Shown: positions 1,353 through 17,660, numbered from the stretch's first letter. The stretch is DNA of 64,000 bases from Propionibacteriaceae bacterium (GCA_035634295.1 DASQDG010000038.1:17209-81208), one strand, 5' to 3'. The notes: a model not told the origin generated them from the sequence alone. Numbers and translations: made by a program.

Positions 1353-1377
1353 GGCGCCATCGTGCCAGTATTCGCCT

Positions 1378-2349
1378 GTGGAGTCCCCTCGCCTGCTGCT
1401 TCTGGATACCGCTTCGCTCTATTTCCGGGCCTTCTTCGGAGTGCCCGACTCGCTCCGGGCGCCCGACGGCACGCCGGTCAACGCGGTCCGCGGACTGCTC
1501 GACTTCATCGCCACCTTGGTGACCAGCTATTCCCCCACCCATCTGGCCTGCTGCTGGGACAACGACTGGCGGCCGGCCTGGCGGGTGGAGCTGATCCCCA
1601 GCTACAAGGCGCATCGGGTGGCCTCGGAGAGTGACTCGGTGGTCAGCGAGATGGCTTCCACCCCCAGCACGGCGGGCGAGACCGCGCCCGACGACCTGGC
1701 CGTCCAGGTGCCCCTTATCCTGCAGGTGCTCGACGCGCTCGGCCTGGCTGTCGTCGGCCGAGACGGCTATGAAGCCGACGACGTCATCGGCACCCTGGCC
1801 AGCACCGCACCGATGCCCACCGACGTGGTCACCGGCGACCGGGACCTGTTCCAGCTGGTCGACGACAAGCGGCAGGTCCGCGTCCTCTACATCGCCCGCG
1901 GGGTGGGCAAGCACGAGCAGGTGGACGAGGCCTGGATACGGGCGAAGTACGGCGTCGCCGCCTCCTCCTACGTGGACTACGCCACCCTGCGCGGGGACGC
2001 CTCCGACGGGCTGCCCGGGGTGGCCGGCATTGGGGAGAAGACGGCCGCCGCCCTGCTGGAGCGCCATGGCGACCTGCACTCGATCCTGAGCGAGGCCAGC
2101 CGTCCGCAGTCGGTCATCAGCAGCTCCGTTCGGTCCAAGCTGGGCGCCGCCATCGACTACCTCGCGGTCGCGCCCACGGTGGTCTCGGTGGTCCGCGACC
2201 TCGACCTCGGGGTGAGCTTCGAGGACCTCCGGCTACCGCGAACGCCTCGAAAGCCCGAACAGTACGCCGAGCTCAGCGACCGCCTAGGCCTCAGCGGCAG
2301 CGGCCGGCGTGTGGTGGCCAGCCTCGCCGGTGTCCAGAGCGCTGGCTGA
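1378..2349 (+). CDS. 5'-3' exonuclease / flap endonuclease (PolI N-terminal-like, Rv2090-type)
   Basis: LLLDTASLYFRAFFG, GYEADDVIGTLA, VVTGDRDLFQLV, LRGDASDGLPGVAGIGEKTA. Start GTG 1378 preceded by CAGTAT -10-like box 6 nt upstream. Confidence 0.9.
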   Translation: MESPRLLLLDTASLYFRAFFGVPDSLRAPDGTPVNAVRGLLDFIATLVTSYSPTHLACCWDNDWRPAWRVELIPSYKAHRVASESDSVVSEMASTPSTAGETAPDDLAVQVPLILQVLDALGLAVVGRDGYEADDVIGTLASTAPMPTDVVTGDRDLFQLVDDKRQVRVLYIARGVGKHEQVDEAWIRAKYGVAASSYVDYATLRGDASDGLPGVAGIGEKTAAALLERHGDLHSILSEASRPQSVISSSVRSKLGAAIDYLAVAPTVVSVVRDLDLGVSFEDLRLPRTPRKPEQYAELSDRLGLSGSGRRVVASLAGVQSAG

Positions 2350-5300
2350 GCGACGCTCTCCGGCGTCGATCACCTCACGGGCGGCGTTCAGGAAGCCGTC
2401 GGCGTAGTGGTCGGGCGGGAAGTCGCCGAGATAGTAGATCTTGGTCTGCCGTCGTACCTGGGCCAGCGGGTCGCGCTGCAGCAGGTCATCGTAGACCTGA
2501 TCGAGGTTGCTGAGGTCTTGGCGAAGCAGATAGCCGGCCTTGGCTGCCGGTGCCTCCTCCAGCAGCTGCTCGGGGGTGCGCCCCACCGACACGATGGCGA
2601 ACGGCTTCTCGGAGTGCAGGTAGTCCGAAACCACCGCCGACACATCGGAGATCATTGCGTCCGAGGCGTTGAAACAGTCCTCGATGGTCATCTGCTGTTC
2701 CGCAGCCGGGCCCCACAGATGCTCGCGTCCGGTGGCGGCCTTGTCGGCGGCCAACAACCGCCCGATTGCGGCGATCATGTCCACGCACACGCTGAAGCGG
2801 TAGTTGAAGGGGTGCGCCCGGAAGATCACCCGGACGCCACGGGCGAGCAGCTCCTGCACGATCTGTCGCCCCAGAGGCAACGAGTAAACCCGGGTGTCGG
2901 CGAACGGTCCCTGCCAGGTCGGCGCGTAGAGCACCGTGGGCTGGGGCTGAGCGCTGGGTGGGCCGATCGCGGGCCGGACAGCCTCCACCTGAGGGCGACC
3001 GACGATCTGGAACTTCTCCCGCGGGATCTCGATGCCGTGCCGGTGGTAGCGGTCGATGCCGGCTTGACCGGCGGTGAACAGCAGGTCATAGATGGCGTGC
3101 ACCGGGTTATAGCAGGCGGGCTTCTCGGAGTCGCCGTGATTGAGCCAGACGTGTGTCAGCTCGCGGCGCTCGACGAAGTGGGTGTTGCGGACGGCGTTGT
3201 TGACGTAGAAGGCCGTGGTCAGCGACGGCGGGATGACGTCCTCGAGGCTGCGCAGGGTGGGCCGGTGAATGACCGGCACTTCGACTTCGGAAGCTGCGGT
3301 CACGGCGGCGATCTCGCGCATCATGGCCACGCTGCGGGTGACGATGATGAACGGGCGCCCGATCCGCATGAAGAACGGCAGCCACATGCCCACCTGGTAG
3401 GCCGCGCCCACGGTGGACGCGAAGTAGACGGCGAACTGAGGGGCATACTCCTGCAGGGCGCCCCGCAGTCGCCCTTCGGCCTTGAGCGCCCGGCTGGCTC
3501 GGAGGAGCGCGGTCACCAGGGTGTCGAGGAACAGTGCAAGAACGACCAGGGCCAGCAGCAGCAGCACCCATCCCGGAGGCGGCACCAGCGCCAGCGCGGC
3601 CGCCAGCAGGCTCACCAGAAAACCGACCAGCGTGCTGACGCCACGAGGAATCCGCTCGGTGACCTGCGCGCCGACCAGCGGGAAGTCCCGTACGAGCAGG
3701 CCAAGACCTCCCCAGGCCGACCTGATGTGCGCCTCTCCTGAAGTGGAGACGGCAAGCAGCACCAGCGCCAGGACCGCCGTGGGAGTCAGGCCCCCACGGT
3801 CGGCAAGCAGCACGCCGGTCACCACCAGCACCACGGCCCGGGTCGCGGGCGCCTGGTTGAGCAGCCCACCCCAGCGGTACGGATCGCTGAGGCTGGTGCC
3901 CGCCGACAGGATCCCGGCAACCCCGGCCAGGACGCAGAGCAGCAGCGTCAGCAACCCGGGCGCATCCAGCAAAGCAGCCGCCAGCGCGACCAAGGCCAGG
4001 CCGGTGCTGGACAGGTTGAGACCGATGCCGCCAAGCAGCCGCCGGTAGCCGGACCACCCCACGGCCCGGGATCCGCCGTTCGGCTCTTCCTCGCCCTCGC
4101 CCTCGTCGTCGGTTTCGTCGTCGTCCTCGGCGGTCTTGCTGGTGACCTGTCGGACGGCGTCAACGAAAGCGTTCGCATAGCCTTCGGCCTCGAAGTCACC
4201 GAGATAGTCGACCCGGATGGCGGCGCGGCGGGTGGCGAGCGGGTCGGGCCCGAGCATCTCCTCCAGTTGAGCATCGAGGTCGGACAGGTCGCCGTCCACC
4301 ACGTAGGCGGCCTGCGCCACCGGATATTCCTCCACGAAGGACTCCGGTGCCGACGGCACCGCAATCATGGCGAACGGCTTAAGGGAGAACAGGTAGTCCG
4401 AAACCACCGCGGACACGTCGGACACCATTGCGTCGGAGGCGTTGATGCAGTCCAGCAGGCCCCGCTCGGACTCCGCGGCGCTGCCCCACAGATGCACCCG
4501 CCCCGTGGTCTGGGCGTCGGCGGCCAGCAGCGCCTGGATGCGGCCGATGGTGGCGGCGTCGTCGGGGAAGTCGTAGTTGAAGGGGTGTGGCCGGAAGATC
4601 ACCGTGGAGCCGCGCTCCAGCAGCGCGCGCACGATCCGCTCCCCCACCGGCAGGGAATACAGCAGGGTCTCCTCCACGTGGCCGCGCCAGGTCGGGGCGT
4701 AGAGCACGACGGGCTGCACGACCTCGGAGATGGAGCGGACGGTGGGCACCACGTCCTCCACCTGCGGCCGGCCGACGACTTGAAACTTGTCGGCGGCGAT
4801 CCGGACGCCGTGGGCGGCGTAGCGTCGGGTGGCCGCCGGCCCCGCAGCGAAGATCCGGTCGTACATCGCGTGCGTCGGGTTGTAGGAGGGCGGCTTGTCG
4901 GAGTCGCCGTGCCCTAGGTAGATGTGGGTCAGGTGCTGGTAGCGGACGAAGACCCCGTTGCCGGAGGAGGCGTTGACGTAGAAGGCGGCCTTGAGCGACG
5001 GCGGCACCAGCGCGTCGAGGTCGGAGATCTTGCGGGCCTCCACCACCGGTACGTCGGTCAGCTCGGCCAGGGCCCGGGCCGGGGTGGAGTTGCGGGTGAT
5101 GACGAGAAACCTTCGGCCGGCTCGTTGAAGGTAGGGCAGCCACATGGTGACCTGATAGGACGCGTCGTCGGGACGCGAGGTGTAGATGACGAACTCGGGG
5201 GCATAGTCGGCGACCGCTTGGGGCACCACGGTCCGCAGCCGGCGAGCGGTGAGGATCTTGCGACGCCCGCGGACGGCCACCAGAAATGGCAGCACCAGGG

Positions 5301-5868
5301 CCAGGGCGGCAGCCAGCGCCCACCACCACGAACTGAGGCCTAGCAACGCCACCGCGACTCCCGCTGAGGTGCTGACCAGACTGGCCGCCACCACCCAACC
5401 TCGCAGGTCACGCGTGCGGGTGACGGTCGGCACCCCCGGCAGGTGCGCCACGACCGGCGGCTGGAAGCGCGCGGCTCGGCGCAGGAACGGCTCCCCCACC
5501 ACGCCCGCGGTGAGCAGAGCGACCGCCAGCGCGGCGCCGAGAACCTGGGCGGGGGCGGCGTTGAAGCCGATCAGGACGCCGAGGCCGGCCACGGTCAGGG
5601 TGCGCGCGACGATGGCTGCGCCCAGGACGCCGCGGCGCTGGACTCTGACCCGAAGCAGCAGCCTCAGCGACAGGCCCAGCACGCAGGCGGACAGCAGCGC
5701 GGTGGCCAGGGCGCTCGAGCTGCCGCCCGGGCGCAGCAGCGACGGTGACGGCGAGCTCAGTGCGCCGACCATGGCCGCCACCACGATCAGGGTGTCCAGA
5801 GCGAGGTTGACGTAGCGCTGCCGCTGTTGCGGGTTTCCGCTCACCTCCGGAGTCGTGATCGCGGTCAT
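2284..5868 (-). CDS. Membrane protein with two tandem CDP-polyol phosphotransferase (TagF/TagB-like) modules
   Basis: Two repeats of a multi-TM segment plus catalytic domain: GHGDSDK/NHGDSEK, VGRPQVE, VLYAPTW, IFRPHPF/IFRAHPF, SDAMxSDVSAVVSDYL. Start 5868 chosen from ATGA overlap with the upstream acyltransferase stop. Confidence 0.8.
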   Translation of the reverse strand: MTAITTPEVSGNPQQRQRYVNLALDTLIVVAAMVGALSSPSPSLLRPGGSSSALATALLSACVLGLSLRLLLRVRVQRRGVLGAAIVARTLTVAGLGVLIGFNAAPAQVLGAALAVALLTAGVVGEPFLRRAARFQPPVVAHLPGVPTVTRTRDLRGWVVAASLVSTSAGVAVALLGLSSWWWALAAALALVLPFLVAVRGRRKILTARRLRTVVPQAVADYAPEFVIYTSRPDDASYQVTMWLPYLQRAGRRFLVITRNSTPARALAELTDVPVVEARKISDLDALVPPSLKAAFYVNASSGNGVFVRYQHLTHIYLGHGDSDKPPSYNPTHAMYDRIFAAGPAATRRYAAHGVRIAADKFQVVGRPQVEDVVPTVRSISEVVQPVVLYAPTWRGHVEETLLYSLPVGERIVRALLERGSTVIFRPHPFNYDFPDDAATIGRIQALLAADAQTTGRVHLWGSAAESERGLLDCINASDAMVSDVSAVVSDYLFSLKPFAMIAVPSAPESFVEEYPVAQAAYVVDGDLSDLDAQLEEMLGPDPLATRRAAIRVDYLGDFEAEGYANAFVDAVRQVTSKTAEDDDETDDEGEGEEEPNGGSRAVGWSGYRRLLGGIGLNLSSTGLALVALAAALLDAPGLLTLLLCVLAGVAGILSAGTSLSDPYRWGGLLNQAPATRAVVLVVTGVLLADRGGLTPTAVLALVLLAVSTSGEAHIRSAWGGLGLLVRDFPLVGAQVTERIPRGVSTLVGFLVSLLAAALALVPPPGWVLLLLALVVLALFLDTLVTALLRASRALKAEGRLRGALQEYAPQFAVYFASTVGAAYQVGMWLPFFMRIGRPFIIVTRSVAMMREIAAVTAASEVEVPVIHRPTLRSLEDVIPPSLTTAFYVNNAVRNTHFVERRELTHVWLNHGDSEKPACYNPVHAIYDLLFTAGQAGIDRYHRHGIEIPREKFQIVGRPQVEAVRPAIGPPSAQPQPTVLYAPTWQGPFADTRVYSLPLGRQIVQELLARGVRVIFRAHPFNYRFSVCVDMIAAIGRLLAADKAATGREHLWGPAAEQQMTIEDCFNASDAMISDVSAVVSDYLHSEKPFAIVSVGRTPEQLLEEAPAAKAGYLLRQDLSNLDQVYDDLLQRDPLAQVRRQTKIYYLGDFPPDHYADGFLNAAREVIDAGERRSASALDTGEAGHHTPAAAAEA

Positions 5869-6926
5869 GGCCGCTCGGGAGAGCGTCGGAACAGCCATCC
5901 CACTGACGGTTCGACCAGGACTCGAAACGTGGCCGACACCACTGACGTCGACAGCACGGCCGTGAGCAGGAGAGCGCCCAGCACCAGGGCGAGCAAGACC
6001 ACGGGCGACTTGACGTCGTCGAGGTAGCCGGCCTGCAGCAAGAAGTAGATCGGCAGCAGGTGCAGCATGTAGACGTACATGGTCGCCCGGCCCCAACCGG
6101 TGACCGAAGTCGTCGAGGCCGAGGTCACCGACACGATGGCGACCACCAGCAGCAGGGCGATCCCGATCAGGAGAAGCCGGGTTCCGCCCGCGGCCCAGCC
6201 CTGCACGCCGATGGTGGCGTAGTTCTTCTCCACCTGGACCCACTCCCGCAGGTGATGCTCGCGAGCGAACGAGACGCCGAGCACGCAGCAGACCAAGGCG
6301 ACCAGGAGCACGCCCAGCGAAGTCGCACGGACCCAACCCCGCCGAAGGAACGGCAGTACCGAGGCCAATGACGGGCGTGACCGCATCGCCCAGCCGGCCA
6401 CGAAGAAGGGCAGCATGCCCAACACCCGGCTGGCGTCGAAGAGCCAGCCGATGGCGAAGTATCCGCTGATGCAGGCCACCGCGACCGCGACCACGACCGG
6501 CAGCTGCAGGTTTGCCATCAGCGGCAGGGCCAGTCGCCAGGCGGCCAGCGCGGGCAGGAACCACAGGTGCCAGTAGGGCGAGGTGAGGTCGAAGGTGAGC
6601 TTGCCCTCCTGCCACCAGCGGATCAGGGCCCAGAGCACGCTGAAGATCACGTACGGGGCCAACAGCTGGCTGATGATCCTCTGACCGTCGGCACCGGTGA
6701 TCGGCTCGGCCCGGGCGAAGTATCCGGAGATGAAGGCGAACAGCGGCATATGGAACGCATAGACGAACAGGTAGAGCGCGTACGCCAGGTCATAGCGCGA
6801 AGCCGACTCGATCGTGTGCCCTACGACCACCAGGGAGATGGCCAACAGCCGGAGGTTGTCCCACAGCGGATCGCGACTGCGGACCGCGCCGGTCGACGCG
6901 GCGGCGCTGGGAGTCGCGATCACCAT
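5865..6926 (-). CDS. Acyltransferase family 3 (OafA-like O-acyltransferase), multi-TM
   Basis: RDPLWDNLRLLAISLVVVGH, YAFHMPLFAFISGYF, WHLWFLPAL, GRATMYVYMLH; about 10 hydrophobic helices. Confidence 0.85.
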   Translation of the reverse strand: MVIATPSAAASTGAVRSRDPLWDNLRLLAISLVVVGHTIESASRYDLAYALYLFVYAFHMPLFAFISGYFARAEPITGADGQRIISQLLAPYVIFSVLWALIRWWQEGKLTFDLTSPYWHLWFLPALAAWRLALPLMANLQLPVVVAVAVACISGYFAIGWLFDASRVLGMLPFFVAGWAMRSRPSLASVLPFLRRGWVRATSLGVLLVALVCCVLGVSFAREHHLREWVQVEKNYATIGVQGWAAGGTRLLLIGIALLLVVAIVSVTSASTTSVTGWGRATMYVYMLHLLPIYFLLQAGYLDDVKSPVVLLALVLGALLLTAVLSTSVVSATFRVLVEPSVGWLFRRSPERP

Positions 6927-9900
6927 TCCGATGCAGGCGCGTCGCCGCGAGGAACGAAGACCGCATCCACCAGGCGTTCGGCGGCGCGGCCGTCCTCGAG
7001 GGGGAGGTAGTCGCTCCGGAACCGCCGATACTGCTCGGCGTATTCGGCCCGGACCTGATCCAGCTGCGACAGTGCCTCGATGATCTCGTCGGTGGTGTTG
7101 ACGAACGGACCCGGCGCGGTGGGCTCGAAGTCGAAGAGCCAGCCCCGGGTCTCGACGTAGCGCTGCAGGTCGGGCACGTGGAAGATCATCGGCTTGCCCG
7201 TGACCCCGAAGTCGAAGCGCAGCGAGGAGTAGTCCACCAAGGCCGCGTCGGCGGCCAGATAGAGGTCGCTCACCTCGGGATAGTCGGTGACGTCGATCAC
7301 CCCGGGGCGCGGCCGGATGCGCCGGTTCACTCGGGCGTTGAACGCGTGACCGCGGACCAAGACCACATAGTCATCGCCTAGGGCTGCGGTGACGGTGTCG
7401 AGGTCGAGGAAGTCCACCATCTCAGCCCGGTGGTCGTCGGGTGAGAGGTAGTCGCGGTAGGTCGGCGCGTACAACACGACGGTCTGGTCGGGCTTGATGC
7501 CGAACGCGTCGCGGACTCGTCGGCGCAGCTCGTCGGCGTGCGGCGACGACAACACGTCGTTGCGTGGATAGCCGATCTCGAGCACCTCACCGGAATAGCG
7601 GAAATCGCGGGTGAGCAGCGGGGTGGCGTACGGGGCCGGCGAGATGAGGTAGTCCCACTCGGCCGAGCGGCGCGCGTAGGAGTCGATCCGCTGAGTCGAG
7701 AAGCCGGCCCTGATCCAGTTCGGGTAGCCCATGGTCTTGAACGGGTAACCGTGGAAGGTCTGCATCAGCACCTGTCCGGCCGGCTTCACGTGGTAGTCCG
7801 GCTGGTACATGTTGTCCATGTAGTAGGTCACGCTGGACAGCAGCCGATACCACTCGGCGCTGTCCTTGACCACGCCGATACCGCCCTCGGGCACGGGTAC
7901 GGAGTGGTCCCGAATCGCCCAGTAGACCGGCAGGTCGCACCCCCGGCGGGCGAGCTCGGCCTGCAGCCCGACCCCGTTGTCAGTAGCGGACTCGCCAAAG
8001 TAGGACTGCAACAGCACGCCCCGGTGAGTGGCCCGGGCGTCGGCCCGCGGTCGACCGCGCAGCAGGTTCTGCCGGTAGCGCCCGGTGGCCTCGGCTCCCA
8101 ACGGACGGGTCAGCGACAGCTGCAGGTTGCCGCCGGCGCCGCCGCGGACCACCCGAGCGTTCACCAGCTCCGAACCCACCGAGACCGGGACCCGAAGCAG
8201 CAGTTCCGCCGACATCAGCACCGGGAACGGCGCGCTTTCCTCAACCGGGCCCGGCAGACCGGGGACGTCGGCCAGCACCCGGTATTCGCCCGAGCGGAGC
8301 GGCAACGTGCCGAACCGGCCCTCGGTGCGGGCGATCGGCACCGTGGCGTGGAAGCGACTCCCGTCGACCTCGGGCAGCACCCAGTCCGAGCGCCGGGTCG
8401 GATGGACCAGGGCGATCCGAAACGGCGCGGCAACCATGCCCGCGAAATGACCGCGAATCTCCAGGTCGCCGTGCGCGTTTGTGCTCAGCTCGGTGGCCAC
8501 CACCGCGCCTCGACGCTCGGTCACCGTCACCCGCCCGAACCGGGTCCGTTCCAAAGCGATCACCTGGCCCGGCAGCTCGACCGGCCCGGAGTCGCCTCGC
8601 CAGGCCACCGGAACTCTTGTCGTGGTGGTCTTGCCGTTCTCGGCTGTACCGCTGACCAGGGCCCGCACCCGCCAGCGACGAGTGGCGGCCGGACTGTCCA
8701 GCAGCCCCTCGGGCAGCGGCGGCAACGCGAGCGAGACCGGGGCACTGGCGTTCTCGGTCGGTTCGAGGGACGTCCGGGCGACCAGCCGAGCGCTCGAATT
8801 GGTCGCTTCAAATCCCACCACATGGCGAAGGTCGCCGTGCAGCACCCCGATCAGCTGCCGGTCCTGGATGGTGGCCTGGACGAGCTCGACCCCGGCTTCG
8901 TCCAGCCGAAGCCGCAACGGGCGTCGCCACTGCCACAGCAGGACCAGATGCGTGCCGTCGGGGCGTCGGCTGTGCTCCAGAGCCGCGGCAGAGCCACGCT
9001 GGTTGACACGGGTGATCGGCGCGGTCACCGAGAACCCGGCCACGTCAACCCGCAGATCGAGGTCCCAGACGTCTCCGATACTCGCTCCGACCTCGTCGCA
9101 CAGCTCGGCGAAAGGAACGTCGACGGCGAACTGGCCCCCCTCATAAGTCGCCCAAGGGTCGTCGTTGGGAGCGGGGAAGATCGGCACCGGCAGGTGCTGG
9201 TTGGCGAACTCAAAGGATCGACCGGTTCGACGGTGCCGGGCCAGCACCGTCACCTGATTGGTGGTGCCCGCGGGCGCCTCGGCCAGGTTGAGGTAGCGCA
9301 GGTAAGCCCAGCCACTCACTCGCAGTCGGGCATCGTGGGTCCACTCCAGGCCCTGCACCGAATGGGACAGCTCCAGCTGATCGGGGCGCAGCAGGAAGAG
9401 CTGCTTGTCCAGGCCGATCTCGGGATCGTCGAAGTAAGGCAGCTGCAGATAGAGGCCCTCGGGGGCGACCGTGGCCGGCCACTGGTGCAGGCGGTGGCCG
9501 TTGCGCGCGATGAACTCCCGGGCTTCCAGCTGCCGATTGGCGCACGCGAGCGCGATCATCACCCGGCGCATGGGCATGGTGCGGTCCCACACCTGCTGCG
9601 ATGCTGCACCGGCAAGATCAGAAACGGCACTCTGCAGCTCGCACCAGTAGTCGTGGGAGGTGGTGGACGGGCTGTTGAGGTACCAGTGGAAGTGCGCGTC
9701 GAAGAGGGTCTGCAGCCAGGCGTCGTAGATCTCGACCGACACCGTGTCCTGCAGGGCCTCGTGGCTGACCCGCCACGCGGCCACACGGTCCCGCACGTCG
9801 CTCACGGTGCTGGTCTGTTGGCTGATCGAACTGCCGTCGGCCCGGGCCCGATACTCATAGACCACCCGAGCGAGCACGTCGATCTTCCGCGCCCGGGCGT

Positions 9901-10594
9901 AGAGCTGGCTGATGATCGGCTGGTCCTCGTAGGCCACCCCTTCGCGAAAGGTCAGCCCCTGGGCGCGCCAGAACGAGCGTCGGTAGAGCTTGCCCCAGGT
10001 GTAGTTGTTGCGCAGCAGCCGCGGGAAGTCCTCCAGGGTGATGCCCAGCCGGGTCTTGGCGTGCAGCTCGTGCACCCACTCCGGCGTCCAGCGGCGGCTG
10101 CCGGTGAAGCGGACCGCGGCGCCGGCCACGATGTCGGCACCGCTACGGCGAGCCGAGCGCACCATCGGGCCGATGGCACCGAGCGGCAGGGAGTCGTCGG
10201 AGTCGACGAACATTAGGAACGTGCCGCGGGCGTGCTGGACTCCGGTGTTGCGGGCGGCGCCCAGGCCACCGTTGGGGCGCCGCACGATCTTGACTCGGGA
10301 GTCCTTGGCGGCGTAGCGCCTGGCGATCGCGTAGGACCTGTCCGGCGACCCGTCGTCGACGATGATCAGCTCGAAGTTCCGGAATCCCTGCGACAAGATG
10401 CTGTCCAGACACTCCGCCAGATAGGCCTCGACGTTGTAGATGGGCACGATGACGCTGACCGCAGGTCGAGGCTGGCGGGGCTTGGGCGGCCGGGCGGCCG
10501 GCTGCGGTCGGCGCAAGCCTGGCAGCCGACGCAGCTGGCGGCGTACGGGAAGGGGCAGACGTCGACCGAGGGAGCGGACAATACTTCTTCTCAT
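6920..10594 (-). CDS. Bifunctional GT2 glycosyltransferase / TagF-like polyol-phosphate polymerase
   Basis: N-terminal GT2 (VSVIVPIYNVEAYL, IVDDGSPD, FLMFVDSDD); C-terminal TagF-like (QTFHGYPFK, GYPRND, LYAPTYRD, VRGHAF, VDYSSLRFDF). Start could be 10645. Confidence 0.88.
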   Translation of the reverse strand: MRRSIVRSLGRRLPLPVRRQLRRLPGLRRPQPAARPPKPRQPRPAVSVIVPIYNVEAYLAECLDSILSQGFRNFELIIVDDGSPDRSYAIARRYAAKDSRVKIVRRPNGGLGAARNTGVQHARGTFLMFVDSDDSLPLGAIGPMVRSARRSGADIVAGAAVRFTGSRRWTPEWVHELHAKTRLGITLEDFPRLLRNNYTWGKLYRRSFWRAQGLTFREGVAYEDQPIISQLYARARKIDVLARVVYEYRARADGSSISQQTSTVSDVRDRVAAWRVSHEALQDTVSVEIYDAWLQTLFDAHFHWYLNSPSTTSHDYWCELQSAVSDLAGAASQQVWDRTMPMRRVMIALACANRQLEAREFIARNGHRLHQWPATVAPEGLYLQLPYFDDPEIGLDKQLFLLRPDQLELSHSVQGLEWTHDARLRVSGWAYLRYLNLAEAPAGTTNQVTVLARHRRTGRSFEFANQHLPVPIFPAPNDDPWATYEGGQFAVDVPFAELCDEVGASIGDVWDLDLRVDVAGFSVTAPITRVNQRGSAAALEHSRRPDGTHLVLLWQWRRPLRLRLDEAGVELVQATIQDRQLIGVLHGDLRHVVGFEATNSSARLVARTSLEPTENASAPVSLALPPLPEGLLDSPAATRRWRVRALVSGTAENGKTTTTRVPVAWRGDSGPVELPGQVIALERTRFGRVTVTERRGAVVATELSTNAHGDLEIRGHFAGMVAAPFRIALVHPTRRSDWVLPEVDGSRFHATVPIARTEGRFGTLPLRSGEYRVLADVPGLPGPVEESAPFPVLMSAELLLRVPVSVGSELVNARVVRGGAGGNLQLSLTRPLGAEATGRYRQNLLRGRPRADARATHRGVLLQSYFGESATDNGVGLQAELARRGCDLPVYWAIRDHSVPVPEGGIGVVKDSAEWYRLLSSVTYYMDNMYQPDYHVKPAGQVLMQTFHGYPFKTMGYPNWIRAGFSTQRIDSYARRSAEWDYLISPAPYATPLLTRDFRYSGEVLEIGYPRNDVLSSPHADELRRRVRDAFGIKPDQTVVLYAPTYRDYLSPDDHRAEMVDFLDLDTVTAALGDDYVVLVRGHAFNARVNRRIRPRPGVIDVTDYPEVSDLYLAADAALVDYSSLRFDFGVTGKPMIFHVPDLQRYVETRGWLFDFEPTAPGPFVNTTDEIIEALSQLDQVRAEYAEQYRRFRSDYLPLEDGRAAERLVDAVFVPRGDAPASEW

Positions 10595-10767
10595 CTCGAA
10601 CCTCGACGCACGTCTGGTCGCTGTGCCGGGCGGCGGCAGCATCACGGGAGTTTACCGTCCCCGCCTGTCCAGCTCACCCTGCGCCGCGCGCCGTGGTCGC
10701 GCGAGCCGTTTCTGCTCTAATGGGCTAGGTCACCTCAGCCCGCATACCTCGACTGGAGTTCCCCGCC

Positions 10768-11667
10768 GTGTCTGACGCGAAGCCCGTACGCACGATGAAC
10801 GACATCCCGGGGTGGTTCACCTGGACAGACCAGCAGCTTTTCCGCTATTTCCTGCACAACGCGGCTCCCGAACTCCCAGGCGACCTCGTCGAGCTGGGAA
10901 CCTATATGGGCAAGAGTGCGGTCCTGATCGGAGAATATCGGCGCCCCGACGAGCGGTTTGTGGTGTGCGACCTCTTCAACGACGAGTCCGACCTCGCCAA
11001 CAACATCGAGAACACCCGGTCATACCGGTCACTGACCCGGGAGGCGTTCGAGGCCAACTACCAGGCCGTGCGCGGGGAGCTGCCCGAGGTCGTGCAAGGA
11101 CTGTCCTCGACCATCACCGAGCACGTGGCACCGGCCAGCGTCCGCTTTATGCACGTCGACGCCTCACACCTTTATGAGCACGTGGTGATCGATATCGCCT
11201 CGGCCACCTCGCTGCTGACCAGTGACGGCATCGTGGTCTTCGACGACATCCAGAGCCGGCACACGCCAGGCGTTGCCGCGGCGGTCTGGTCGGCGGTGGT
11301 GGACGGGCGGTTGAAGCCCATCTGCATGACTCCGTCCAAGCTCTACGCGACGCTGGGCGACCCGACCCCGATCCGCTCGGGGTTCCAGGACTGGCTGATC
11401 AAGTTTGGCCGGCTGATGTGGGAAACCCAGGAGATCGCCGGCCTGGAGATCATCCGGCTGTGGCCACCGCCACCGGCCAAGCCGGCGGCGCCGGCGGCCA
11501 ATCCCGACTTCGAGGACGCGCTGCGTCGGATCAACCGGCGGCTGACCAGGATCGAGCAGCAGTTGACCCAGACCAACCGTCAACTCGAGCAGAGCTTCGG
11601 CCGGCGGGTGCAGAGGTCGGTGATTCGACGGGTGAAGAAGCTCCGGACGGCTACTCCGCAGGCGTGA
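10768..11667 (+). CDS. Class I SAM-dependent methyltransferase (Methyltransf_24-like) with C-terminal coiled coil and basic tail
   Basis: GDLVELGTYMGKSA, FMHVDASHLYEHV, GIVVFDD; heptad repeat LRRINRRLTRIEQQLTQTNRQLEQ near the C-terminus. Confidence 0.8.
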   Translation: MSDAKPVRTMNDIPGWFTWTDQQLFRYFLHNAAPELPGDLVELGTYMGKSAVLIGEYRRPDERFVVCDLFNDESDLANNIENTRSYRSLTREAFEANYQAVRGELPEVVQGLSSTITEHVAPASVRFMHVDASHLYEHVVIDIASATSLLTSDGIVVFDDIQSRHTPGVAAAVWSAVVDGRLKPICMTPSKLYATLGDPTPIRSGFQDWLIKFGRLMWETQEIAGLEIIRLWPPPPAKPAAPAANPDFEDALRRINRRLTRIEQQLTQTNRQLEQSFGRRVQRSVIRRVKKLRTATPQA

Positions 11668-13525
11668 CCACCGAGACCCGTCGGAGCCGGTCCACGTCGA
11701 AGCTCACCTTGGTGTGGACCGTTCTACCGGCGTAGCTGATGCCGATGGCATAGCGGCCGGGCGCCAGGCCGACGGTCGCCTCGATCCGGACGCCGTCCGA
11801 GTCGCCCAGCAGCCGGGCGTCGTGGCGTCGCTGTTGGCCGGTGAGGTCGGTCAGCACCAGGGCACACGGGATGGACGTGGTCCCGGTGGCCTTGACTGAG
11901 CGCAGCCCTACGGTCACCCGCTGATGCCGGACGCCGGCGCGAACCGTGGTCACGTCGGTCGCGGCCACCGTACGGGCCCTGGCGGTATCCAGGAAGTCAG
12001 GCACGTCTTGGCCCTTGACCAGGGTCAACACGCCGTCGTCGCCGGGACCCACCCAGGTAACGACGCCGTTCACCAGCCGCACCACCGGCTTGGCCTCGCT
12101 GACCAGGGCCTTGCGGTGGAAATAGCCGAGGACTTCTGACCGGCAGGCGAACTGCCAGCTGCCGTCCTTGATCGGCCGACCCATGATGGCGTCGGCCAGG
12201 TCAAGGGCGACGTCTGCGGCCACGCTGACGGTCGCCAGGTCCTCGTCGCCACCGATCCGGACCCGGCTGGTGGTCTGGGGCAGCGGGAAGGGCGCCATGT
12301 CGGTGCTCTCACGTAGCGCCAGCACTGACTCCGCTTGTTCGATGTGGTCGGTGACGTCGACCAGCTCGGGCGGCAGAGCCTGCAGCAGCGACGGCTCGAG
12401 GTCGCGCAGCAGCCGGTCGCCCACCCGGCGGAACTTCAGGTCTCCGTCGCCACTGAGCCGCCACGTGGTGGTGCAGGACAGGTGCAACCTGCCGTCTGAG
12501 GCCCACGACGCCTCGACCGGCGTCGTACGGGCCCACACTCGCTGGTCGGCCTCGGCCAGCCGCCACAGCAGCGCGTCCTGATCATCGCGCAGCAGGTATG
12601 AGCGAGCCAGAGCGACCGGCGACAGCCCGGCGTCGACCTCCAGCGGGGCGTGCTTCGCCACGAACGGCCGCATCCGCTCGCGGGAGCGTTCCACCAGCTC
12701 TCGGCTGAGGTTGAGCGAGCGTGGCCCCACCCAGGTCAACAGCACCCGGGCGACGTACTCGATCTGCTGCATCTTGAGCAGATCGGCCGGTGCAAGCACC
12801 CGGGCGAACTCGTCGAACACGTCGATCATGACGGGCCAGTAGATGTCCAGGTCCCACTGCCGGGGGTTGCCGACGTAGGACTGGGAGTTGTTACTGCCGG
12901 TTTCGGTATGCCATTTGTAGAAAGGCACCGAGGACAGCATGCCGATCCGCTTGGCCTGGGCGTAGGCGGCGACGTTGAACAACCGGTCCTCCCAGTGCAC
13001 CCGCTGGCCTTCCCGGAAGCGGATGCCGCAGCTGCGCAGGAACTCCGTTCGGTAGAGCTTGTGCGGCATCATCGGAATCAGCAATCCGGGGTCCTTGGGC
13101 TGCTGGGGAGCGATGTCGGCGTTGTACTCCACCCAGCTCCAGTTGTCGGCGGTCCAGGTCACCTCCTTGGCGTTCAAGATGTCCAGCTGGGCCGCGGCGG
13201 CGAAGTCGTAGGCAGCCGACAGGGCCTCTGGGTAAAGCTCGTCGTCGTGGTCCATGAACAGCACGTACTCACCGCGTGCCAACTGGACGCCGGTGTTTCG
13301 CGGCCGGCTGGGCCAGCCCGAGCGCGAGATCTCGTGGACCGCAAAGTTGGGCCGGGTGCGGGCGATCTCGTGCAGCCGCTGCGGGGTGTCGTCGCCAGAC
13401 TCGTCGTCGATGAAGAGCACCTCGAACTCGTCGGCGGCCAGAGTCTGCTCATCGAGTGAGCGCACCACCCGATCCAGCCCGTCGCCGGAGCGGTACGTGG
13501 GCACGATCACGGTCACCTTAACCAC
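11651..13525 (-). CDS. GT2 family glycosyltransferase with long C-terminal accessory domain
   Basis: VKVTVIVPTYRS, FIDDESGD, SGWPSRPRN, YVLFMDHDDEL (DxD), WEDRLFN. Start moved to GTG 13525. Confidence 0.85.
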   Translation of the reverse strand: MVKVTVIVPTYRSGDGLDRVVRSLDEQTLAADEFEVLFIDDESGDDTPQRLHEIARTRPNFAVHEISRSGWPSRPRNTGVQLARGEYVLFMDHDDELYPEALSAAYDFAAAAQLDILNAKEVTWTADNWSWVEYNADIAPQQPKDPGLLIPMMPHKLYRTEFLRSCGIRFREGQRVHWEDRLFNVAAYAQAKRIGMLSSVPFYKWHTETGSNNSQSYVGNPRQWDLDIYWPVMIDVFDEFARVLAPADLLKMQQIEYVARVLLTWVGPRSLNLSRELVERSRERMRPFVAKHAPLEVDAGLSPVALARSYLLRDDQDALLWRLAEADQRVWARTTPVEASWASDGRLHLSCTTTWRLSGDGDLKFRRVGDRLLRDLEPSLLQALPPELVDVTDHIEQAESVLALRESTDMAPFPLPQTTSRVRIGGDEDLATVSVAADVALDLADAIMGRPIKDGSWQFACRSEVLGYFHRKALVSEAKPVVRLVNGVVTWVGPGDDGVLTLVKGQDVPDFLDTARARTVAATDVTTVRAGVRHQRVTVGLRSVKATGTTSIPCALVLTDLTGQQRRHDARLLGDSDGVRIEATVGLAPGRYAIGISYAGRTVHTKVSFDVDRLRRVSVVTPAE

Positions 13526-13703
13526 CCAAAAACGGTACCAACCGCGGTGCTGCCGGCTTGGCCGCCAATGACTGCGCCGGCCAGCACCGGGCGGCTCAGA
13601 CTCCGAGCCGCAGACGGCACTGGACCAGCCGTTAGAGTGTGCCGCAATGCCCACTCGGGACTGCGCCGAAGCAGGCCGGCCCGGGGTCACCTCAGGAGGA
13701 CCA

Positions 13704-15317
13704 GTGGTCGACGTCAGTGTCCTGGTGAACACTCATAACTCGAGGGAGGCCCTCGGCGGACTGTTTGACTCCCTCGATCGGCAGTCGCTGGCCGTGAGCG
13801 CATTCGAGGTGGTCGCGGTCGACCAAGGCTCCACCGACGGCACCCTCGAGCTGCTCACCAAGCTGGCGTCTCACCGGCCCAACGTGGCCGTCATCACCGC
13901 TGATGACGTCGCTGCCGGCCGGTTCGGGTCGGAGCAGGTCGCCGGCGACTACGTGCTGAACGTCGAGCCGCAGATGCGGCTGTTTCCCGAAGCCCTCCAG
14001 CGACTCAGCCACTGGGCCCGCACGCACGACCTGGACGGGGTTGCGGGACGGGTGGCCACCGGCGCGGAGGCGATCCCGGACCTCCTCCTGACGGACTCCC
14101 CCGCGCTGGACCGCGGGGCGCTCCCCGAGCTCCTCGACGCCGCGGTGGTGCTGGTGCGCAGAACGGCGCTGGCCGCCGAGACCGGCGAGGGGTTGGCGAG
14201 GGTGGGAGTGCTCGGCAGCTATCCGGTGCTCACCCGGCCGCGCCCCGAGGCTGGCGAGCCGGTGGCCGCGCTGGTGCAGGAGCGGGTGTCTGCCAGATGG
14301 CAGGACGGCCGGCTCCTCCTAGAGGTCGCGGGCACGGTGTCCACGAGCCTCGGCGCCAAGGGCGAGGGCGAGGGCGAGCCGAGCGTGGCGGCCCTGATCC
14401 GTTCTGCGACCTCCGGCGTGTCGTACGTCGTTCCCGCACACAGCGAGCTCACCGAGGCCGCCGAAGGGCGGTCGTGGACAGCCACCCTCGAGCTGGACGT
14501 TGCCACCGCCGCCCTGGGCCAGCCGCTGCCGCACGACACCTGGGAGCTCGACCTGCAGCTGACTGGGCCCGGCGTGGCGCGTCACCGACGGCTGACCGTC
14601 GGCGCTGCATCCTGCCCGCCGGCTCTGCTGCCGACCGGTCCGGTGGTGGTGGCCAGCGTCGACGGCCGGTTGCAGGTCGACGTCGGTCCGACGCGGCACC
14701 CGTTGATCTCCAACGCCGATCCGGCCTGGGGCACCATCACCGAGAGCGCCGCCGGAACGCTGCTGGTGATGCAGCTCCCCGAGCTGTACGTCGTTTCGGG
14801 TGCCGGTGAGCTCGAAGGACACGTGGCGCTGGGCAGCTTTCGCCTGCGCGCCTGGGTCAGTAACGACGGGCAACGCGCGTGGCTGACGACGTACCTGAGC
14901 GGGCTCGCGGGGGTGACGCCGGTGAACGCGATGTTCGGCGACTGCCCGGCCAAGCCGACCGGGCTGGAACTGACCATCTCCGGCGTCGGGGCCATGAGTC
15001 TGGCCCGGCCGACGCCGGCCAAGCCCGCACCCCCGGCCAAGCCCGCTCCCCCGGCCAAGCCCGCGACCAAGAAACCGGCGAGCGGCAAGCCGCCGGGCAA
15101 GAACCCGACGAGCGGTCAGCCCGCGAGCGGAAAGCCGAAGAGTCAGCCGTCGTCGGCGAAGAGGCCCGGAAGCAAGAAGAAGCCACCGGCCAAGAAGCCC
15201 ACGGGTCCGGTGGCGCAGATCCGCCGGGCGATCCCTGCCCCGCTGGAACCGGCCATCCGACGACTCGCGGCGGTGCCGGCCGCCCGGAACTGGTATCGCC
15301 GGCTGACCAAGCTGTGA
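13704..15317 (+). CDS. Degenerate GT2-like protein lacking DxD, with Pro/Ala/Lys-rich C-terminal tail
   Basis: AGGAGG RBS before GTG 13704. N-terminus aligns by eye to the neighbouring GT2 (VSVLVNTHNS, VAVDQGSTDG), but the DxD region reads YVLNVEPQMRLFPEAL. Confidence 0.7.
   Translation: MVDVSVLVNTHNSREALGGLFDSLDRQSLAVSAFEVVAVDQGSTDGTLELLTKLASHRPNVAVITADDVAAGRFGSEQVAGDYVLNVEPQMRLFPEALQRLSHWARTHDLDGVAGRVATGAEAIPDLLLTDSPALDRGALPELLDAAVVLVRRTALAAETGEGLARVGVLGSYPVLTRPRPEAGEPVAALVQERVSARWQDGRLLLEVAGTVSTSLGAKGEGEGEPSVAALIRSATSGVSYVVPAHSELTEAAEGRSWTATLELDVATAALGQPLPHDTWELDLQLTGPGVARHRRLTVGAASCPPALLPTGPVVVASVDGRLQVDVGPTRHPLISNADPAWGTITESAAGTLLVMQLPELYVVSGAGELEGHVALGSFRLRAWVSNDGQRAWLTTYLSGLAGVTPVNAMFGDCPAKPTGLELTISGVGAMSLARPTPAKPAPPAKPAPPAKPATKKPASGKPPGKNPTSGQPASGKPKSQPSSAKRPGSKKKPPAKKPTGPVAQIRRAIPAPLEPAIRRLAAVPAARNWYRRLTKL
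15015..15064 (+). repeat. 18-bp coding tandem repeat (PAKPAP x3)
   Basis: ccggccaagcccgc at 15015, 15033 and 15051. Confidence 0.9.
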
Positions 15318-15323
15318 GGACTG

Positions 15324-15396: not shown

Positions 15397-15409
15397 ACCA
15401 CGGCTGCGG

Positions 15410-16171
15410 CTAGGACTGAGTAAGCGGCGACCGGACGAAGCCGGCGCCCAGGCTCTGGGTCACCACGTCGTCCAGACGACGACGCAGCTCGTCCGGGCTC
15501 TGGTCGGGGTCAGACAGCACCGACCACAGAGGGGACTCCAGCACCCGCTCGGGCAACAGTGTGGTGGTGCGTTCGAGCAGGTCGGTCGGCACGGGCTGCG
15601 GGTCGGGATGGCGGAACTCGGCCATGATCTCGTCGTAGCTGTCGATCAGCACTGAGTTGTCCGGGTCCAGCCCCATCACCAGCAGCAGGCCCGTGGGCCG
15701 GGTGCGGACCGGGAGCACGATCAGCTCAGGTCGGTAGCGTTCCAGCACGGCCAGCACCGGATAGACGTCACCCGTCCACGCAAACGTATGCCGTTCACGG
15801 GCGGCCTCGTCGATCGAGCGCGGCAGCACGTCATCGAAGACGATCACGCCACGAGGCGAACTGTGCCGCTCGGTGTTGATGAAGTCGCGCAGCGCGAACT
15901 CGAAGAGGTGCAGGCCGTCGATGAAGGCCAGATCGAAGGGCTTGCCGCCGGTCGGTGCCAAGGGGTCGGGCCGGTTGAAGTACTCGTCGCTGGTGGTCCG
16001 GAACAAGGTGACCTGGTTGTTCAGCTCGGCCTGGATGGAAAATGCCGGGTCGATGCCCACCGCAGGGCATTTCGCGAGCGCCATGCTGATGCCCCGCTCG
16101 ACCCCGATTTCGAGGTAGTGCCGGGGCTGAAGCTGCTCGTGGATGCTGGTCAGGAACTCCCGGTAGAACAT
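15410..16171 (-). CDS. Class I SAM-dependent methyltransferase (Methyltransf_24-like)
   Basis: YLEIGVERG, DLAFIDGLHLFE, GVIVFDDVLP. Confidence 0.85.
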   Translation of the reverse strand: MFYREFLTSIHEQLQPRHYLEIGVERGISMALAKCPAVGIDPAFSIQAELNNQVTLFRTTSDEYFNRPDPLAPTGGKPFDLAFIDGLHLFEFALRDFINTERHSSPRGVIVFDDVLPRSIDEAARERHTFAWTGDVYPVLAVLERYRPELIVLPVRTRPTGLLLVMGLDPDNSVLIDSYDEIMAEFRHPDPQPVPTDLLERTTTLLPERVLESPLWSVLSDPDQSPDELRRRLDDVVTQSLGAGFVRSPLTQS

Positions 16172-16250
16172 GACTTCACCCTAACGGCCCACCCGCTGCG
16201 CCGGGTGACAGGCGGCTGGCTGGGCTGCGGGTGTCCGCTACAGTCGCCGG

Positions 16251-17660
16251 GTGGCCAAGTTGCGCAACGTCGCCGTGGTGCTCGCGGGCGGCACCGGCAC
16301 CCGGGTGGGCCTCAGCATCCCCAAGCAGCTGATCAAGATCGCCGGCAAGCCGATCATCGAGCACACCATCGCCGCGATGCAGCAGTCACCGGTGATCGAC
16401 GAGATCCTGGTGATGATGGCGCCGGGCTACCTGGACGAGATCCGGGCGATCGTCCGCGGCGGCGCCTACGACAAGGTCACCCAGATCCTCGAGGGCGCCG
16501 GCACCCGGAACGACACCACGTCCGCCGCGCTGGCCGCACTCGGCGGCGAAGACTGCAACGTGTTGCTGCACGACGCGGTCCGGCCGCTGGTCAGCCAGAC
16601 GATCATCGCCGCGAACGTCGCCGCGCTGGAATCGCACGAGGCGGTGGACACCGCCATCGCGTCGGCCGACACGGTGATCAAGGTGACCGCTGAGACCGGC
16701 CTGATGGCCGACGTGCTGCCCCGACACCTGCTGCGACGCGGTCAGACGCCCCAGTCGTTTCGGCTGTCCACCATTCGAGCGGCCTACGCTAAGGCAGCAA
16801 CGGACCCCAACTTCACCGCCACCGACGACTGCACGGTCGTGCTGCGCTACCTGCCCGACGTTCCCATCGCGGTCGTGCCGGGCCACGAGCGCAACATGAA
16901 GGTCACCGAGCCGATCGACGTCTACATCGCCGACAAGCTCTTCCAGCTGACGTCGGCAGACACGCCGGCGGCGCTGTCCGACAACGAATACCGCGCCCGG
17001 CTGACCGGCAAGACGCTGGTGGTTTTCGGCGGTTCGTACGGCATCGGTGGTGACATCGTCGAGCTGGCCCGGACCTACGGCGCCACCGTGCGCACCTTCT
17101 CCCGGTCCTCGACCGGCACCCACGTGGAGCGGCGCGAGGACGTGGTGGCAGCGGCCCGGGCGGTGTTGAACGAGACCGGCCAGATCGACTTCGTGGTGAA
17201 CACCGCAGGCGTGCTGCCGCGGGGCAAGCTGGCCGAGACCAGCGAGGAGACCATCTTCCAGGCCACGGACGTCAACTATCTGGCCCCGATCATCATCGCG
17301 CAGGAGTTCTTCCCCCATTTGAGCCAGACCCGCGGCTCGCTGCTGCTCTTCACCTCGTCGTCCTACACCCGAGGACGGTCCGGCTACTCGCTCTACTCCT
17401 CGGCCAAGGCGGCGGTGGTCAACCTGACGCAGGCGCTCGCCGACGAGTGGGGCCACGCGCACGTCCGGGTCAACTGCATCAACCCCGAACGGACCGCAAC
17501 CCCGATGCGCACCCGTGCCTTCGGCGCGGAGCCGGCCGGCACCTTGCTGACCTCAGAAGAGGTGGCCCGGCAGTCCCTGGACGTGTTGCTGTCCGGCCAG
17601 ACCGGGCACGTGATCGACATTCGTCGCGCAGAAGGACCCGCCGCGCTGGCCGGTGGTTAG
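16251..17660 (+). CDS. Bifunctional IspD/TarI-type cytidylyltransferase + SDR reductase (Bcs1-like CDP-ribitol synthase)
   Basis: N-terminal VLAGGTGTRVG..PKQL, LLHDAVRP, GQTPQSF, NMKVTEPID; C-terminal SDR VVFGGSYGIG, NTAG, YSSAK. TACAGT -10 box 6 nt before GTG. Confidence 0.85.
   Translation: MAKLRNVAVVLAGGTGTRVGLSIPKQLIKIAGKPIIEHTIAAMQQSPVIDEILVMMAPGYLDEIRAIVRGGAYDKVTQILEGAGTRNDTTSAALAALGGEDCNVLLHDAVRPLVSQTIIAANVAALESHEAVDTAIASADTVIKVTAETGLMADVLPRHLLRRGQTPQSFRLSTIRAAYAKAATDPNFTATDDCTVVLRYLPDVPIAVVPGHERNMKVTEPIDVYIADKLFQLTSADTPAALSDNEYRARLTGKTLVVFGGSYGIGGDIVELARTYGATVRTFSRSSTGTHVERREDVVAAARAVLNETGQIDFVVNTAGVLPRGKLAETSEETIFQATDVNYLAPIIIAQEFFPHLSQTRGSLLLFTSSSYTRGRSGYSLYSSAKAAVVNLTQALADEWGHAHVRVNCINPERTATPMRTRAFGAEPAGTLLTSEEVARQSLDVLLSGQTGHVIDIRRAEGPAALAGG

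Follow-up and report, generated by a model that had tools for sequence, protein, structure and literature searches.

Teichoic acids with a ribitol-phosphate backbone are chemically known in actinomycetes, and for Streptomyces a ribitol-phosphate wall teichoic acid carrying β-glucose, 3-O-methyl-glucose and O-acetyl groups was documented in 2025 (PMC13274773). The locus of S. griseus and S. antibioticus contains a fused TarIJ protein (SGR_4956) beside a TagF protein (SGR_4957), together with TarS- and TarM-like glycosyltransferases (PMC13274773). Two further groups of described enzymes bear on the locus reported here: proven poly(glycosyl-phosphate) polymerases have a GT-A domain fused to a TagF-like domain (Litschko et al. 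2018, PMC5974469), and RmlT rhamnosylates naked poly(ribitol-phosphate) (PMC11697029). We analyzed a stretch of 64,000 nucleotides from a Propionibacteriaceae bacterium (GCA_035634295.1, DASQDG010000038.1:17209-81208; referred to in its entirety as the window), in which positions 2284-17660 hold eight coding genes (g1 to g8; Table 1). Like the Streptomyces locus, this cluster is actinobacterial and has a fused predicted CDP-ribitol synthase beside TagF-family genes, a TarS-type GT2 glycosyltransferase and species-variable tailoring genes. We consider it likely that the cluster encodes the variable portion, specific to this species, of a wall-teichoic-acid-type pathway in an actinobacterium of the Microlunatus/Friedmanniella group (Propionibacteriaceae); the best reading of its product is a CDP-ribitol-dependent, glycosylated polyol-phosphate wall polymer. 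The statement in a first-pass annotation of the window that no characterised actinobacterial pathway is known to have this combination of genes is outdated in kind, as Streptomyces wall teichoic acid loci have been published (PMC13274773) and the core gene pair is very common.

The ribitol-phosphate reading derives from the TarI-clade N-terminal domain of g8, from the homology of g5 to RmlT, and from TagF-like domains that have kept their histidines. Of the methyl-capped poly(glycosyl-ribitol-phosphate) envisaged in the first-pass annotation, the ribitol-phosphate part is thus well supported in outline, while the methyl cap and the in-chain position of the sugar are unproven. The presence of a sugar as such is backed by the glycosyltransferases of the cluster, but an in-chain sugar is indistinguishable from side-chain glycosylation of a poly(ribitol-phosphate).

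The g8 protein consists of an IspD-family domain (PF01128; E = 7.5e-46) followed by an SDR domain (adh_short; E = 1.3e-29) with the motifs GGSYGIG (residues 260-266), NTAG (317-320) and YSSAK (382-386). The IspD-plus-SDR architecture of Bcs1, to which the first-pass annotation had pointed, is therefore indeed found here, as a TarI-clade cytidylyltransferase followed by the SDR. By sequence alone, the N-terminal domain is equidistant from the solved TarI enzymes and from the Mycobacterium smegmatis IspD, and it falls below the NCBIfam cut-offs of both the ispD model (164.9 versus 181.3) and the Rbo5P-CT model (141.6 versus 166). A maximum-likelihood tree was computed from 47 domains, including those of the fusions, four solved ribitol-5-phosphate cytidylyltransferases, the M. 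smegmatis IspD and stand-alone IspDs. In this tree, a branch with 95% SH-aLRT support has all fusion domains and the four solved TarI enzymes on one side, and the M. smegmatis IspD together with the ispF-adjacent stand-alone IspDs of the relatives on the other. TarI-type residues are present in g8 at G13, Q26, T39, V110, G164, C194 and N215, and at the positions that discriminate TarI from IspD, for instance within HDAVRP and GQTPQSF, it carries the TarI residue; one exception is TDDC, where the Asp of IspD is found. Taken together, the tree and the discriminating residues mark g8 as a predicted CDP-ribitol synthase of the Bcs1/TarIJ architecture, with CDP-ribitol as the expected product.

Three TagF-like domains are encoded in the cluster, one in g3 and two in g1, and all three have kept both catalytic histidines. 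The GT2 domain of g3 (E = 3.4e-39) and its PF04464 domain (E = 7.9e-84) are separated by a middle region of about 580 residues without a Pfam match. Among solved structures, the TagF part matches TagF (3l7i; E = 4.5e-62), TarL (6e-26) and Cps3D (4e-24), and the GT2 part matches GalT1, TarS and TarP; across 20 homologues, the motifs DSDD and HGYPFK (H965) as well as H1100 do not vary. An N-terminal GT-A domain with its DxD motif and a TagF-like domain thus occur in one polypeptide with intact active-site motifs, whereas the group 2 capsule (kps) context of a Gram-negative host is missing, since the locus is situated between housekeeping genes on a high-GC actinobacterial chromosome. In our view, g3 may work like the GT-A/TagF-like capsule polymerases, although its locus is no capsule locus.

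Two PF04464 matches, both above the cut-off, are present in g1, whose modules are 49% identical to each other over 382 residues and whose hydrophobic segments lie at about residues 19-202 and 611-792. The motifs H125-G-x-S-x-K130, A-P-T-W-x-G and H233 (HPF) are invariant in 25 homologous modules. When a g1 module was aligned by hhalign with a g3-type TagF domain, a probability of 95.3% was obtained for the C-terminal half of the module only, and the first His motifs of the two were not aligned. The AlphaFold (AF2) model of the module has a pLDDT of 90.4, and its best Foldseek matches are TagF (3l7i; E = 1.9e-11), TarL (8va1) and Bcs3 (8a0c), with TM-scores of about 0.5 and similar scores for generic GT-B enzymes. 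According to the positive-inside rule, the basic stretch that follows the last membrane segment of g1 would place the catalytic domains in the cytoplasm. The g1 family comprises 533 relatives, and the tandem form is frequent in Friedmanniella, Microlunatus and Propionibacteriaceae.

The most informative of the tailoring genes is g5. It has a GT2 domain (E = 3.1e-21) with a DHDD motif, and its residues 71-655 align with residues 20-597 of the Listeria RmlT chain (8bz4; E = 1.1e-71); this alignment of 585 residues spans the catalytic, helical and oligomerisation/turret regions. Matches to TarS (8e-25) and TarP (7e-18) were obtained as well, and the Pfam TarS_linker domain scores 23.4 bits, under its 27-bit cut-off. 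Both the catalytic Asp in the W-E-D motif and the ribitol-phosphate-binding Arg (R273 in RmlT) are kept. The neighbouring g6 is 33% identical to g5 over 126 residues and still matches GT2 (E = 4.2e-11), but the DHDD of g5 reads NVEPQ in g6, and its DxD is thus lost. Because both Asp motifs are also lacking in the orthologue from Microlunatus parietis (L057; 31% over 430 residues), g6 appears to be a conserved non-catalytic GT2-like protein. Hence, all domain calls of the first-pass annotation, including three TagF-like and three GT2-like domains, were reproduced by profile searches, but one of the GT2-like domains is catalytically degenerate. The C-terminus of g6, a long Pro/Lys-rich linker of PAKP repeats followed by a basic amphipathic helix, is akin to the tail of g4, and g6 may serve the RmlT-like g5 as a partner anchored in the membrane.

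Relatives of the locus were sought in contigs from one genome per species, and 80 loci were fetched out of at least 582 g3-type relatives. In 62 of these loci, the g3-type fusion has a g8-type fusion (54-80% identical) no more than 10 kb away. The fetched loci come mostly from Nocardioides, Marmoricola, Microlunatus and Propionibacteriaceae (i.e., Nocardioidaceae and Propionibacteriaceae), a few originate from Leifsonia, Agromyces and Luteimicrobium (Microbacteriaceae being among the families), and one is derived from a gammaproteobacterium. The core gene pair of a GT2-TagF protein and the fusion is thus widespread, and the locus is not new in kind. No literature on ribitol teichoic acids of Nocardioides was found in the library searched. 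The genes around the core are another matter: the fusion is 76-83% identical across the genus of the window's bacterium, whereas the adjacent genes change completely between species. One Nocardioides locus has the same core with a GNAT gene, three sulfotransferase genes and another methyltransferase gene. AT3 and g4 occur together in a single fetched locus, and a g4 homologue (48%) was found only in L050. M. parietis is the only species among the fetched loci in which g5, g6 and g7 occur together; g7 homologues are found next to the fusion in one congener (G021; 65%) and, among the fetched loci, in L057 (58%) and L079 (46%). The retention of the fusion while its neighbours turn over suggests that the cluster is the hypervariable, serotype-like part of a common system.

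From domain identities, catalytic residues, folds, co-occurrence and gene order, we infer the following substrates, linkages and sequence of steps. The SDR half of g8 would reduce ribulose-5-phosphate with NADPH, and the TarI half would add CMP from CTP to yield CDP-ribitol. At the cytoplasmic face of the membrane, the TagF-like domain of g3 and the two membrane-anchored ones of g1 would move ribitol-phosphate from CDP-ribitol to a lipid-linked primer, while the GT-A domain of g3 would add a sugar, most likely β-linked, into or onto the chain. Glycosylation of ribitol hydroxyls in the nascent chain would be the task of g5, whose donor may be dTDP-rhamnose in view of the rmlB and rmlCD genes present in the genome. 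O-acyl groups would be added by g2, O-methyl groups by g4 and g7, and g6 would serve as a non-catalytic GT2-like partner or scaffold. Priming (by WecA/TagO-, TarF/TagB- and TagD-like proteins), export (by a TagGH/Wzm-Wzt-like system) and LCP-mediated attachment to peptidoglycan would be encoded elsewhere in the genome.

Methylation and acylation of the polymer are suggested only by the presence of g2, g4 and g7. The g2 protein matches PF01757 (E = 2.3e-20) over profile positions 4-325 of 326, a full-length AT3 domain; it has about 7-10 hydrophobic segments and is encoded by a single-copy gene in the genome. Both methyltransferases match PF13578 (g4, E = 1.3e-14; g7, E = 4.3e-11), but their mutual similarity is limited to 31% over 35 residues; they thus appear to be unrelated, only remotely similar Methyltransf_24 members, and a sequence search of the PDB gave no match at E<0.01 for either. 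In g4, a linker with the sequence PPPPAKPAAPAA joins the methyltransferase domain to a coiled coil of roughly 35 residues, and the coil is followed by a basic tail.

Isoprenoid synthesis through the methylerythritol phosphate (MEP) pathway is essential and a drug target, and in this respect g8 deserves particular attention. A search of the genome (94.9% complete) with PF01128 returned g8 and a cross-hit to GlmU only. The genes dxr and ispF are present, and an ispG-like gene, recognized by reading its sequence, lies two genes after dxr. In this genome, ispF follows carD after 22 nucleotides (C8:15470-16463), which means that ispD is missing from the usual carD-ispD-ispF operon. Canonical IspD sequences from congeners found no match in the genome by tblastn, and a hidden canonical ispD was accordingly rejected on the basis of the Pfam search, the tblastn search and inspection of the carD-ispF junction. 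The same junction exists in eight congeners, including the closed genome G014, and ispD is kept at this position only in G008 and G009. Of 13 further genus members with a completeness of at least 95%, 11 yielded just one IspD-family match, in the score range of the fusion, and two carry both the fusion and a canonical IspD; the single-match genomes include the closed G043 and G063. Genomes with the fusion only also occur in two other families of the Propionibacteriales, and the fusion is better conserved across the genus than IspF (76-83% versus 67-76%). Ten congeners, G014 among them, carry an additional IspF-like sequence with about 40% identity to IspF, in some cases inside long open frames of up to 999 amino acids; the genome of the window lacks it.

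Since the fusion is the only IspD homologue of this genome, it may make both CDP-ribitol and CDP-methylerythritol (CDP-ME). S. aureus TarI turns methylerythritol into a CDP adduct with low efficiency (PMC13576159), and mouse ISPD does not use MEP (PMC4873967). No residue changes were found at conserved positions that separate the sole fusions from those co-existing with a canonical IspD, and no literature on IspD-SDR fusions that replace IspD was found in the library searched. On balance, we lean slightly towards the view that the fusion is a dual-substrate enzyme for ribitol-5-phosphate and methylerythritol-4-phosphate that took over the essential IspD step in most species of the genus and, independently, in at least two other lineages of the Propionibacteriales. 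Most simply, the TarI-type domains of this clade would be able to supply CDP-ME as well, which would permit repeated loss of ispD; alternatively, CDP-ME might come from an unrecognised analogue. The formation of CDP-ME by the fusion, which in the first-pass annotation counted against a ribitol polymer, is thus a live issue, given that g8 is the only IspD homologue and may make both products.

Several observations weigh against a ribitol-phosphate polymer. The best NCBIfam model for the TagF domain of g3 is TarF, a glycerol-phosphate transferase (E = 1e-57, well under the curated cut-off), and this proximity, together with a TagD-like gene in the genome, means that the donor could be CDP-glycerol; the TarF, TarL and TarB models are all far under their equivalog cut-offs on the TagF-like domains. 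In the alignment of g5 with RmlT, the second phosphate-binding residue of RmlT, H268, is replaced by Ile. No homologue of TagA/WecG was found in the genome, which implies a linkage unit different from that of Firmicutes. In the closed G014 genome, the fusion gene directly follows the exonuclease gene, and no homologue of TagF, GT2, AT3 or the methyltransferases was found within about 15 kb on its upstream side and about 19 kb on its downstream side; retention of the fusion is thus independent of the cluster. Finally, the polymer is predicted from the genes, as are the targets of the methyltransferases and the acyltransferase.

Some of these points would fit an arrangement in which the fusion is mainly, or also, an MEP cytidylyltransferase and the TagF-like enzymes use CDP-glycerol or mixed donors to form a glycerol-phosphate or mixed teichoic acid. 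The lack of a canonical ispD in a genome that has dxr, ispG and ispF, and the conservation of the fusion across the genus even without adjacent TagF genes, are in line with this proposal, as are the TagD-like gene and the fact that TarF is the best NCBIfam match of the orphan TagF-like genes as well as of g3. The SDR half, however, has no role in CDP-ME synthesis and is nevertheless conserved at full length in all genomes, the N-terminal domain of the fusion is of the TarI type, and RmlT, the homologue of g5, glycosylates poly(ribitol-phosphate). Furthermore, the fusion and the GT2-TagF gene are also co-located where a canonical IspD gene adjoins ispF (e.g., in G028 and G032), and we regard this arrangement as unlikely. 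Still less probable, in our view, is that no long chain is made and that the products of the cluster modify a different glycan, for instance a lipoglycan or a wall polysaccharide rich in rhamnose, by attaching individual ribitol-phosphate, sugar, methyl and acyl groups to it; the membrane-anchored modules of the TagF type would then be side-chain phosphotransferases. In sequence, the g1-type modules have diverged strongly from the polymerases, with about half of the domain aligning with the g3-type TagF and a match to Pfam profile positions 194-290 only, and they have multiplied in the genus (2-4 per locus, with more copies on contig C59 of the window's genome); further glycan loci and rml genes exist in the genome as well. 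Such a purely decorative role is at odds with the canonical, high-scoring TagF domain of g3 and its GT-A/TagF architecture of proven polymerases (PMC5974469), and with the RmlT/TarS family of g5, which acts on polymeric ribitol-phosphate.

As improbable, in our view, as a purely decorative role is the idea that g4 methylates the non-reducing end and thereby stops growth as a WbdD-like ruler, with the cap being recognised by an ABC exporter. In its favour, g4 combines a methyltransferase domain with a Pro-rich linker, a short coil and a basic tail, and C77 encodes a Wzt-like ATPase that is extended at its C-terminus by about 150 residues. Against it, a Pfam search showed no kinase domain in g4, its sequence matched none of the solved structures, including WbdD, its coiled coil is far under ruler length, the same kind of linker and tail in g6 suggests a generic membrane anchor, g4 is rare in related loci, and the extended Wzt belongs to a different glycan locus with its own methyltransferase. 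The term "methyl-capped" of the first-pass annotation is unsupported, as neither g4 nor g7 has detectable WbdD-type similarity in sequence searches, and on this ground and for its short coil g4 was rejected as a WbdD-like terminator.

With the wall-teichoic-acid-type pathway as the preferred reading, the functions that are not encoded in the cluster can be looked for in the remainder of the genome. No exporter, TagO or LCP gene was seen in the cluster by the first-pass annotation, and none was found anywhere in the window, the rest of which consists of housekeeping genes. Accessory wall teichoic acid genes are present in the genome at the family level, none of them reaching an equivalog cut-off (Table 1). 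Two TagGH/Wzm-Wzt-like exporters were located, on contigs C16 and C77. The best candidates for exporting the polymer of the cluster and attaching it to the wall are the adjacent genes for a Wzm-like permease, a TagH-like ATPase and an LCP ligase on C16. The TagF-like genes on C77, C49 and C87 were considered as one larger wall teichoic acid island, and this was rejected: those on C49 and C87 are orphans among unrelated neighbours, and that on C77 is part of a Wzy-type exopolysaccharide locus. This latter region (C77:14000-40300) has a lower GC content (59-65%), lies upstream of the ribosomal-protein operon and contains two further glycan loci. The first, of the Wzy type, encodes a Bac_transf protein, GT4s, a Wzz/tyrosine kinase, two GH71 proteins and the TagF-like protein; the second, of the ABC type, encodes two GT2s, a deacetylase, a Methyltransf_23 protein, Wzm and the extended Wzt.

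Table 1. Genes of the cluster and its surroundings in the window, and candidate genes for accessory functions elsewhere in the genome (C numbers denote contigs)
Feature	Position	Strand	Description
5'-3' exonuclease gene	1330-2349	+	left border of the cluster
g1	2284..5868	-	1194 aa; two tandem modules (multi-TM plus TagF-like) with an acidic linker between them
g2	5865..6926	-	353 aa; AT3-family integral-membrane acyltransferase, without SGNH domain
g3	6920..10645	-	at most 1241 aa; N-terminal GT2 (GT-A) and C-terminal TagF-like domain
g4	10768..11667	+	299 aa; Methyltransf_24 S-adenosylmethionine-dependent methyltransferase
g5	11651..13732	-	RmlT/TarS-type wall teichoic acid glycosyltransferase
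g6	13647..15317	+	556 aa; degenerate GT2-like protein
g7	15410..16171	-	253 aa; second Methyltransf_24 methyltransferase
g8	16251..17660	+	469 aa; TarI-type cytidylyltransferase fused to SDR reductase
g9	17703..19166	-	487 aa; secreted endonuclease/exonuclease/phosphatase-family (EEP) protein with signal-anchor
PLD-like gene	29324-31102		592 aa; PLD-like/NgoFVII-type nuclease-domain protein
Six further PF04464 (TagF-like) matches	C87, C49, C77, C59 (two), C13
Five LCP genes	C53 (two), C16, C77, C34
WecA/TagO-like gene	C89		present besides MraY
TagD-like cytidylyltransferase	C107		129-130 bits versus a cut-off of 165 bits
TarF/TagB-like genes	C49, C87
TagH-like ATPase and Wzm-like permease	C16:36961-40342		directly beside an LCP gene; 224 bits with a teichoic-acid export model
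Second Wzm/Wzt pair	C77		extended Wzt; lower-GC glycan locus
rmlB and rmlCD	C87

The boundaries of the genes were set by third-position GC and start-codon analysis, and the count of eight corrects the nine contiguous genes of the first-pass annotation. The G+C content of the window is about 69%, and third-position GC amounts to 0.86-0.92 in every gene of the cluster versus about 0.69 overall; chance open reading frames are thereby excluded and the genes are genuine. A reading frame of 1443 amino acids at 2284-6615 was discarded as a shadow frame, as g1 really begins at the ATG at 5868, and the frames at 712-2079, 14879-15655 and 15788-16693 proved to be shadow frames by the same analysis. The start of g3 is uncertain between 10447 and 10645, and that of g5, also uncertain, probably lies within 13525-13690. 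The genes g1, g2 and g3 form one leftward unit with overlapping ends: g3 and g2 overlap by 7 nucleotides, and the ATG of g1 overlaps the stop codon of g2 as ATGA. Since the AT3 gene overlaps both of its neighbours, translational coupling is suggested. The other genes alternate in direction, with g4 divergent from g3 and convergent with g5, g6 divergent from g5 and convergent with g7, and g8 divergent from g7 and convergent with g9. At the left border, the 3' ends of the exonuclease gene and g1 overlap convergently by 66 nucleotides (2284-2349), as the open reading frames are drawn. At the right border, g9 is followed by der, a plsC-like gene, cmk, Pup-proteasome genes, metH, rpe, fmt, priA, metK and coaBC.

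The g9 protein matches PF03372 (E = 1.2e-13) and has two paralogues in the genome, on C59 and C78; homologues with 41-57% identity adjoin the fusion in nine loci, which makes g9 a conserved neighbour. It may act on the wall polymer as a phosphodiesterase, or be no more than a nuclease. Further to the right, the PLD-like gene is situated between a sigma-factor gene and a proteasomal ATPase gene, in a segment in which GC drops to 0.63 from about 0.69 elsewhere, and may have been inserted as a gene of the defence or restriction type.

As a wall-polymer locus, the cluster is a further uncharacterised variant on a theme that is very common in actinobacteria. Its tandem TagF-like protein with membrane anchors, its conserved dead GT2 partner and the turnover of the tailoring genes might be of interest for studies of teichoic acids and phage receptors. 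The more consequential point is a metabolic one, namely the likely double duty of g8. If its TarI-type domain supplies CDP-ME, this would represent a natural paralogue displacement in an essential pathway, in which a single protein couples the synthesis of isoprenoids, and hence of the undecaprenyl carrier, to that of a wall-polymer precursor. An "accessory" wall-polymer gene would thereby become essential and would lend itself to testing how substrate specificity is determined within the IspD family.

When compared with known systems, the locus differs from that of Streptomyces, as described in the literature, in being from another order, the Propionibacteriales, and in having TagF fused to a GT-A domain. 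It adds the tandem membrane-anchored TagF-like protein, AT3, two Methyltransf_24 proteins and a degenerate GT2, and, unlike the Streptomyces loci in the comparison, it has no teichuronic acid (utr) genes. The capsule polymerases Cps1B, Cps12B, Ccs2 and CslB (PMC5974469) as well as Cps3D (PDB 8qoy) resemble g3 in their N-terminal GT-A domain with a DxD motif, their C-terminal TagF-like domain and both catalytic histidines. The host of g3, in contrast, is monoderm and offers no kps export context, and no TPR domain was detected in the middle region that lacks a Pfam match. Both g3 and the two modules of g1 retain the fold of Staphylococcus epidermidis TagF (3l7i) and S. aureus TarL (8va1), together with the motifs HGxxxK, APT[WF]R, HxF and SD[VY]S; the g1 modules, however, occur in tandem within one polypeptide, carry N-terminal multi-pass membrane regions in place of amphipathic helices, and align confidently with these enzymes in their C-terminal half only.

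Of the wall teichoic acid glycosyltransferases RmlT of Listeria monocytogenes and TarS/TarP of S. aureus, RmlT aligns with g5 over 585 residues, including the helical and turret regions, and shares its catalytic Asp and one Arg; the replacement of H268 and the pairing with the degenerate paralogue g6, which has no counterpart in Listeria or Staphylococcus, set g5 apart. Finally, Bcs1/Acs1 of Haemophilus influenzae has the same order of domains as g8, an IspD/TarI-type cytidylyltransferase followed by an SDR, and the GxxxGxG and YxxxK motifs of the SDR are found in both. This likeness is one of architecture, the activity of g8 being predicted, and g8 differs from Bcs1 in that it is also the sole IspD-family protein of a genome that presumably depends on the MEP pathway. 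A gammaproteobacterial fusion, in L054 (46% identical), adjoins a GT2-TagF gene.

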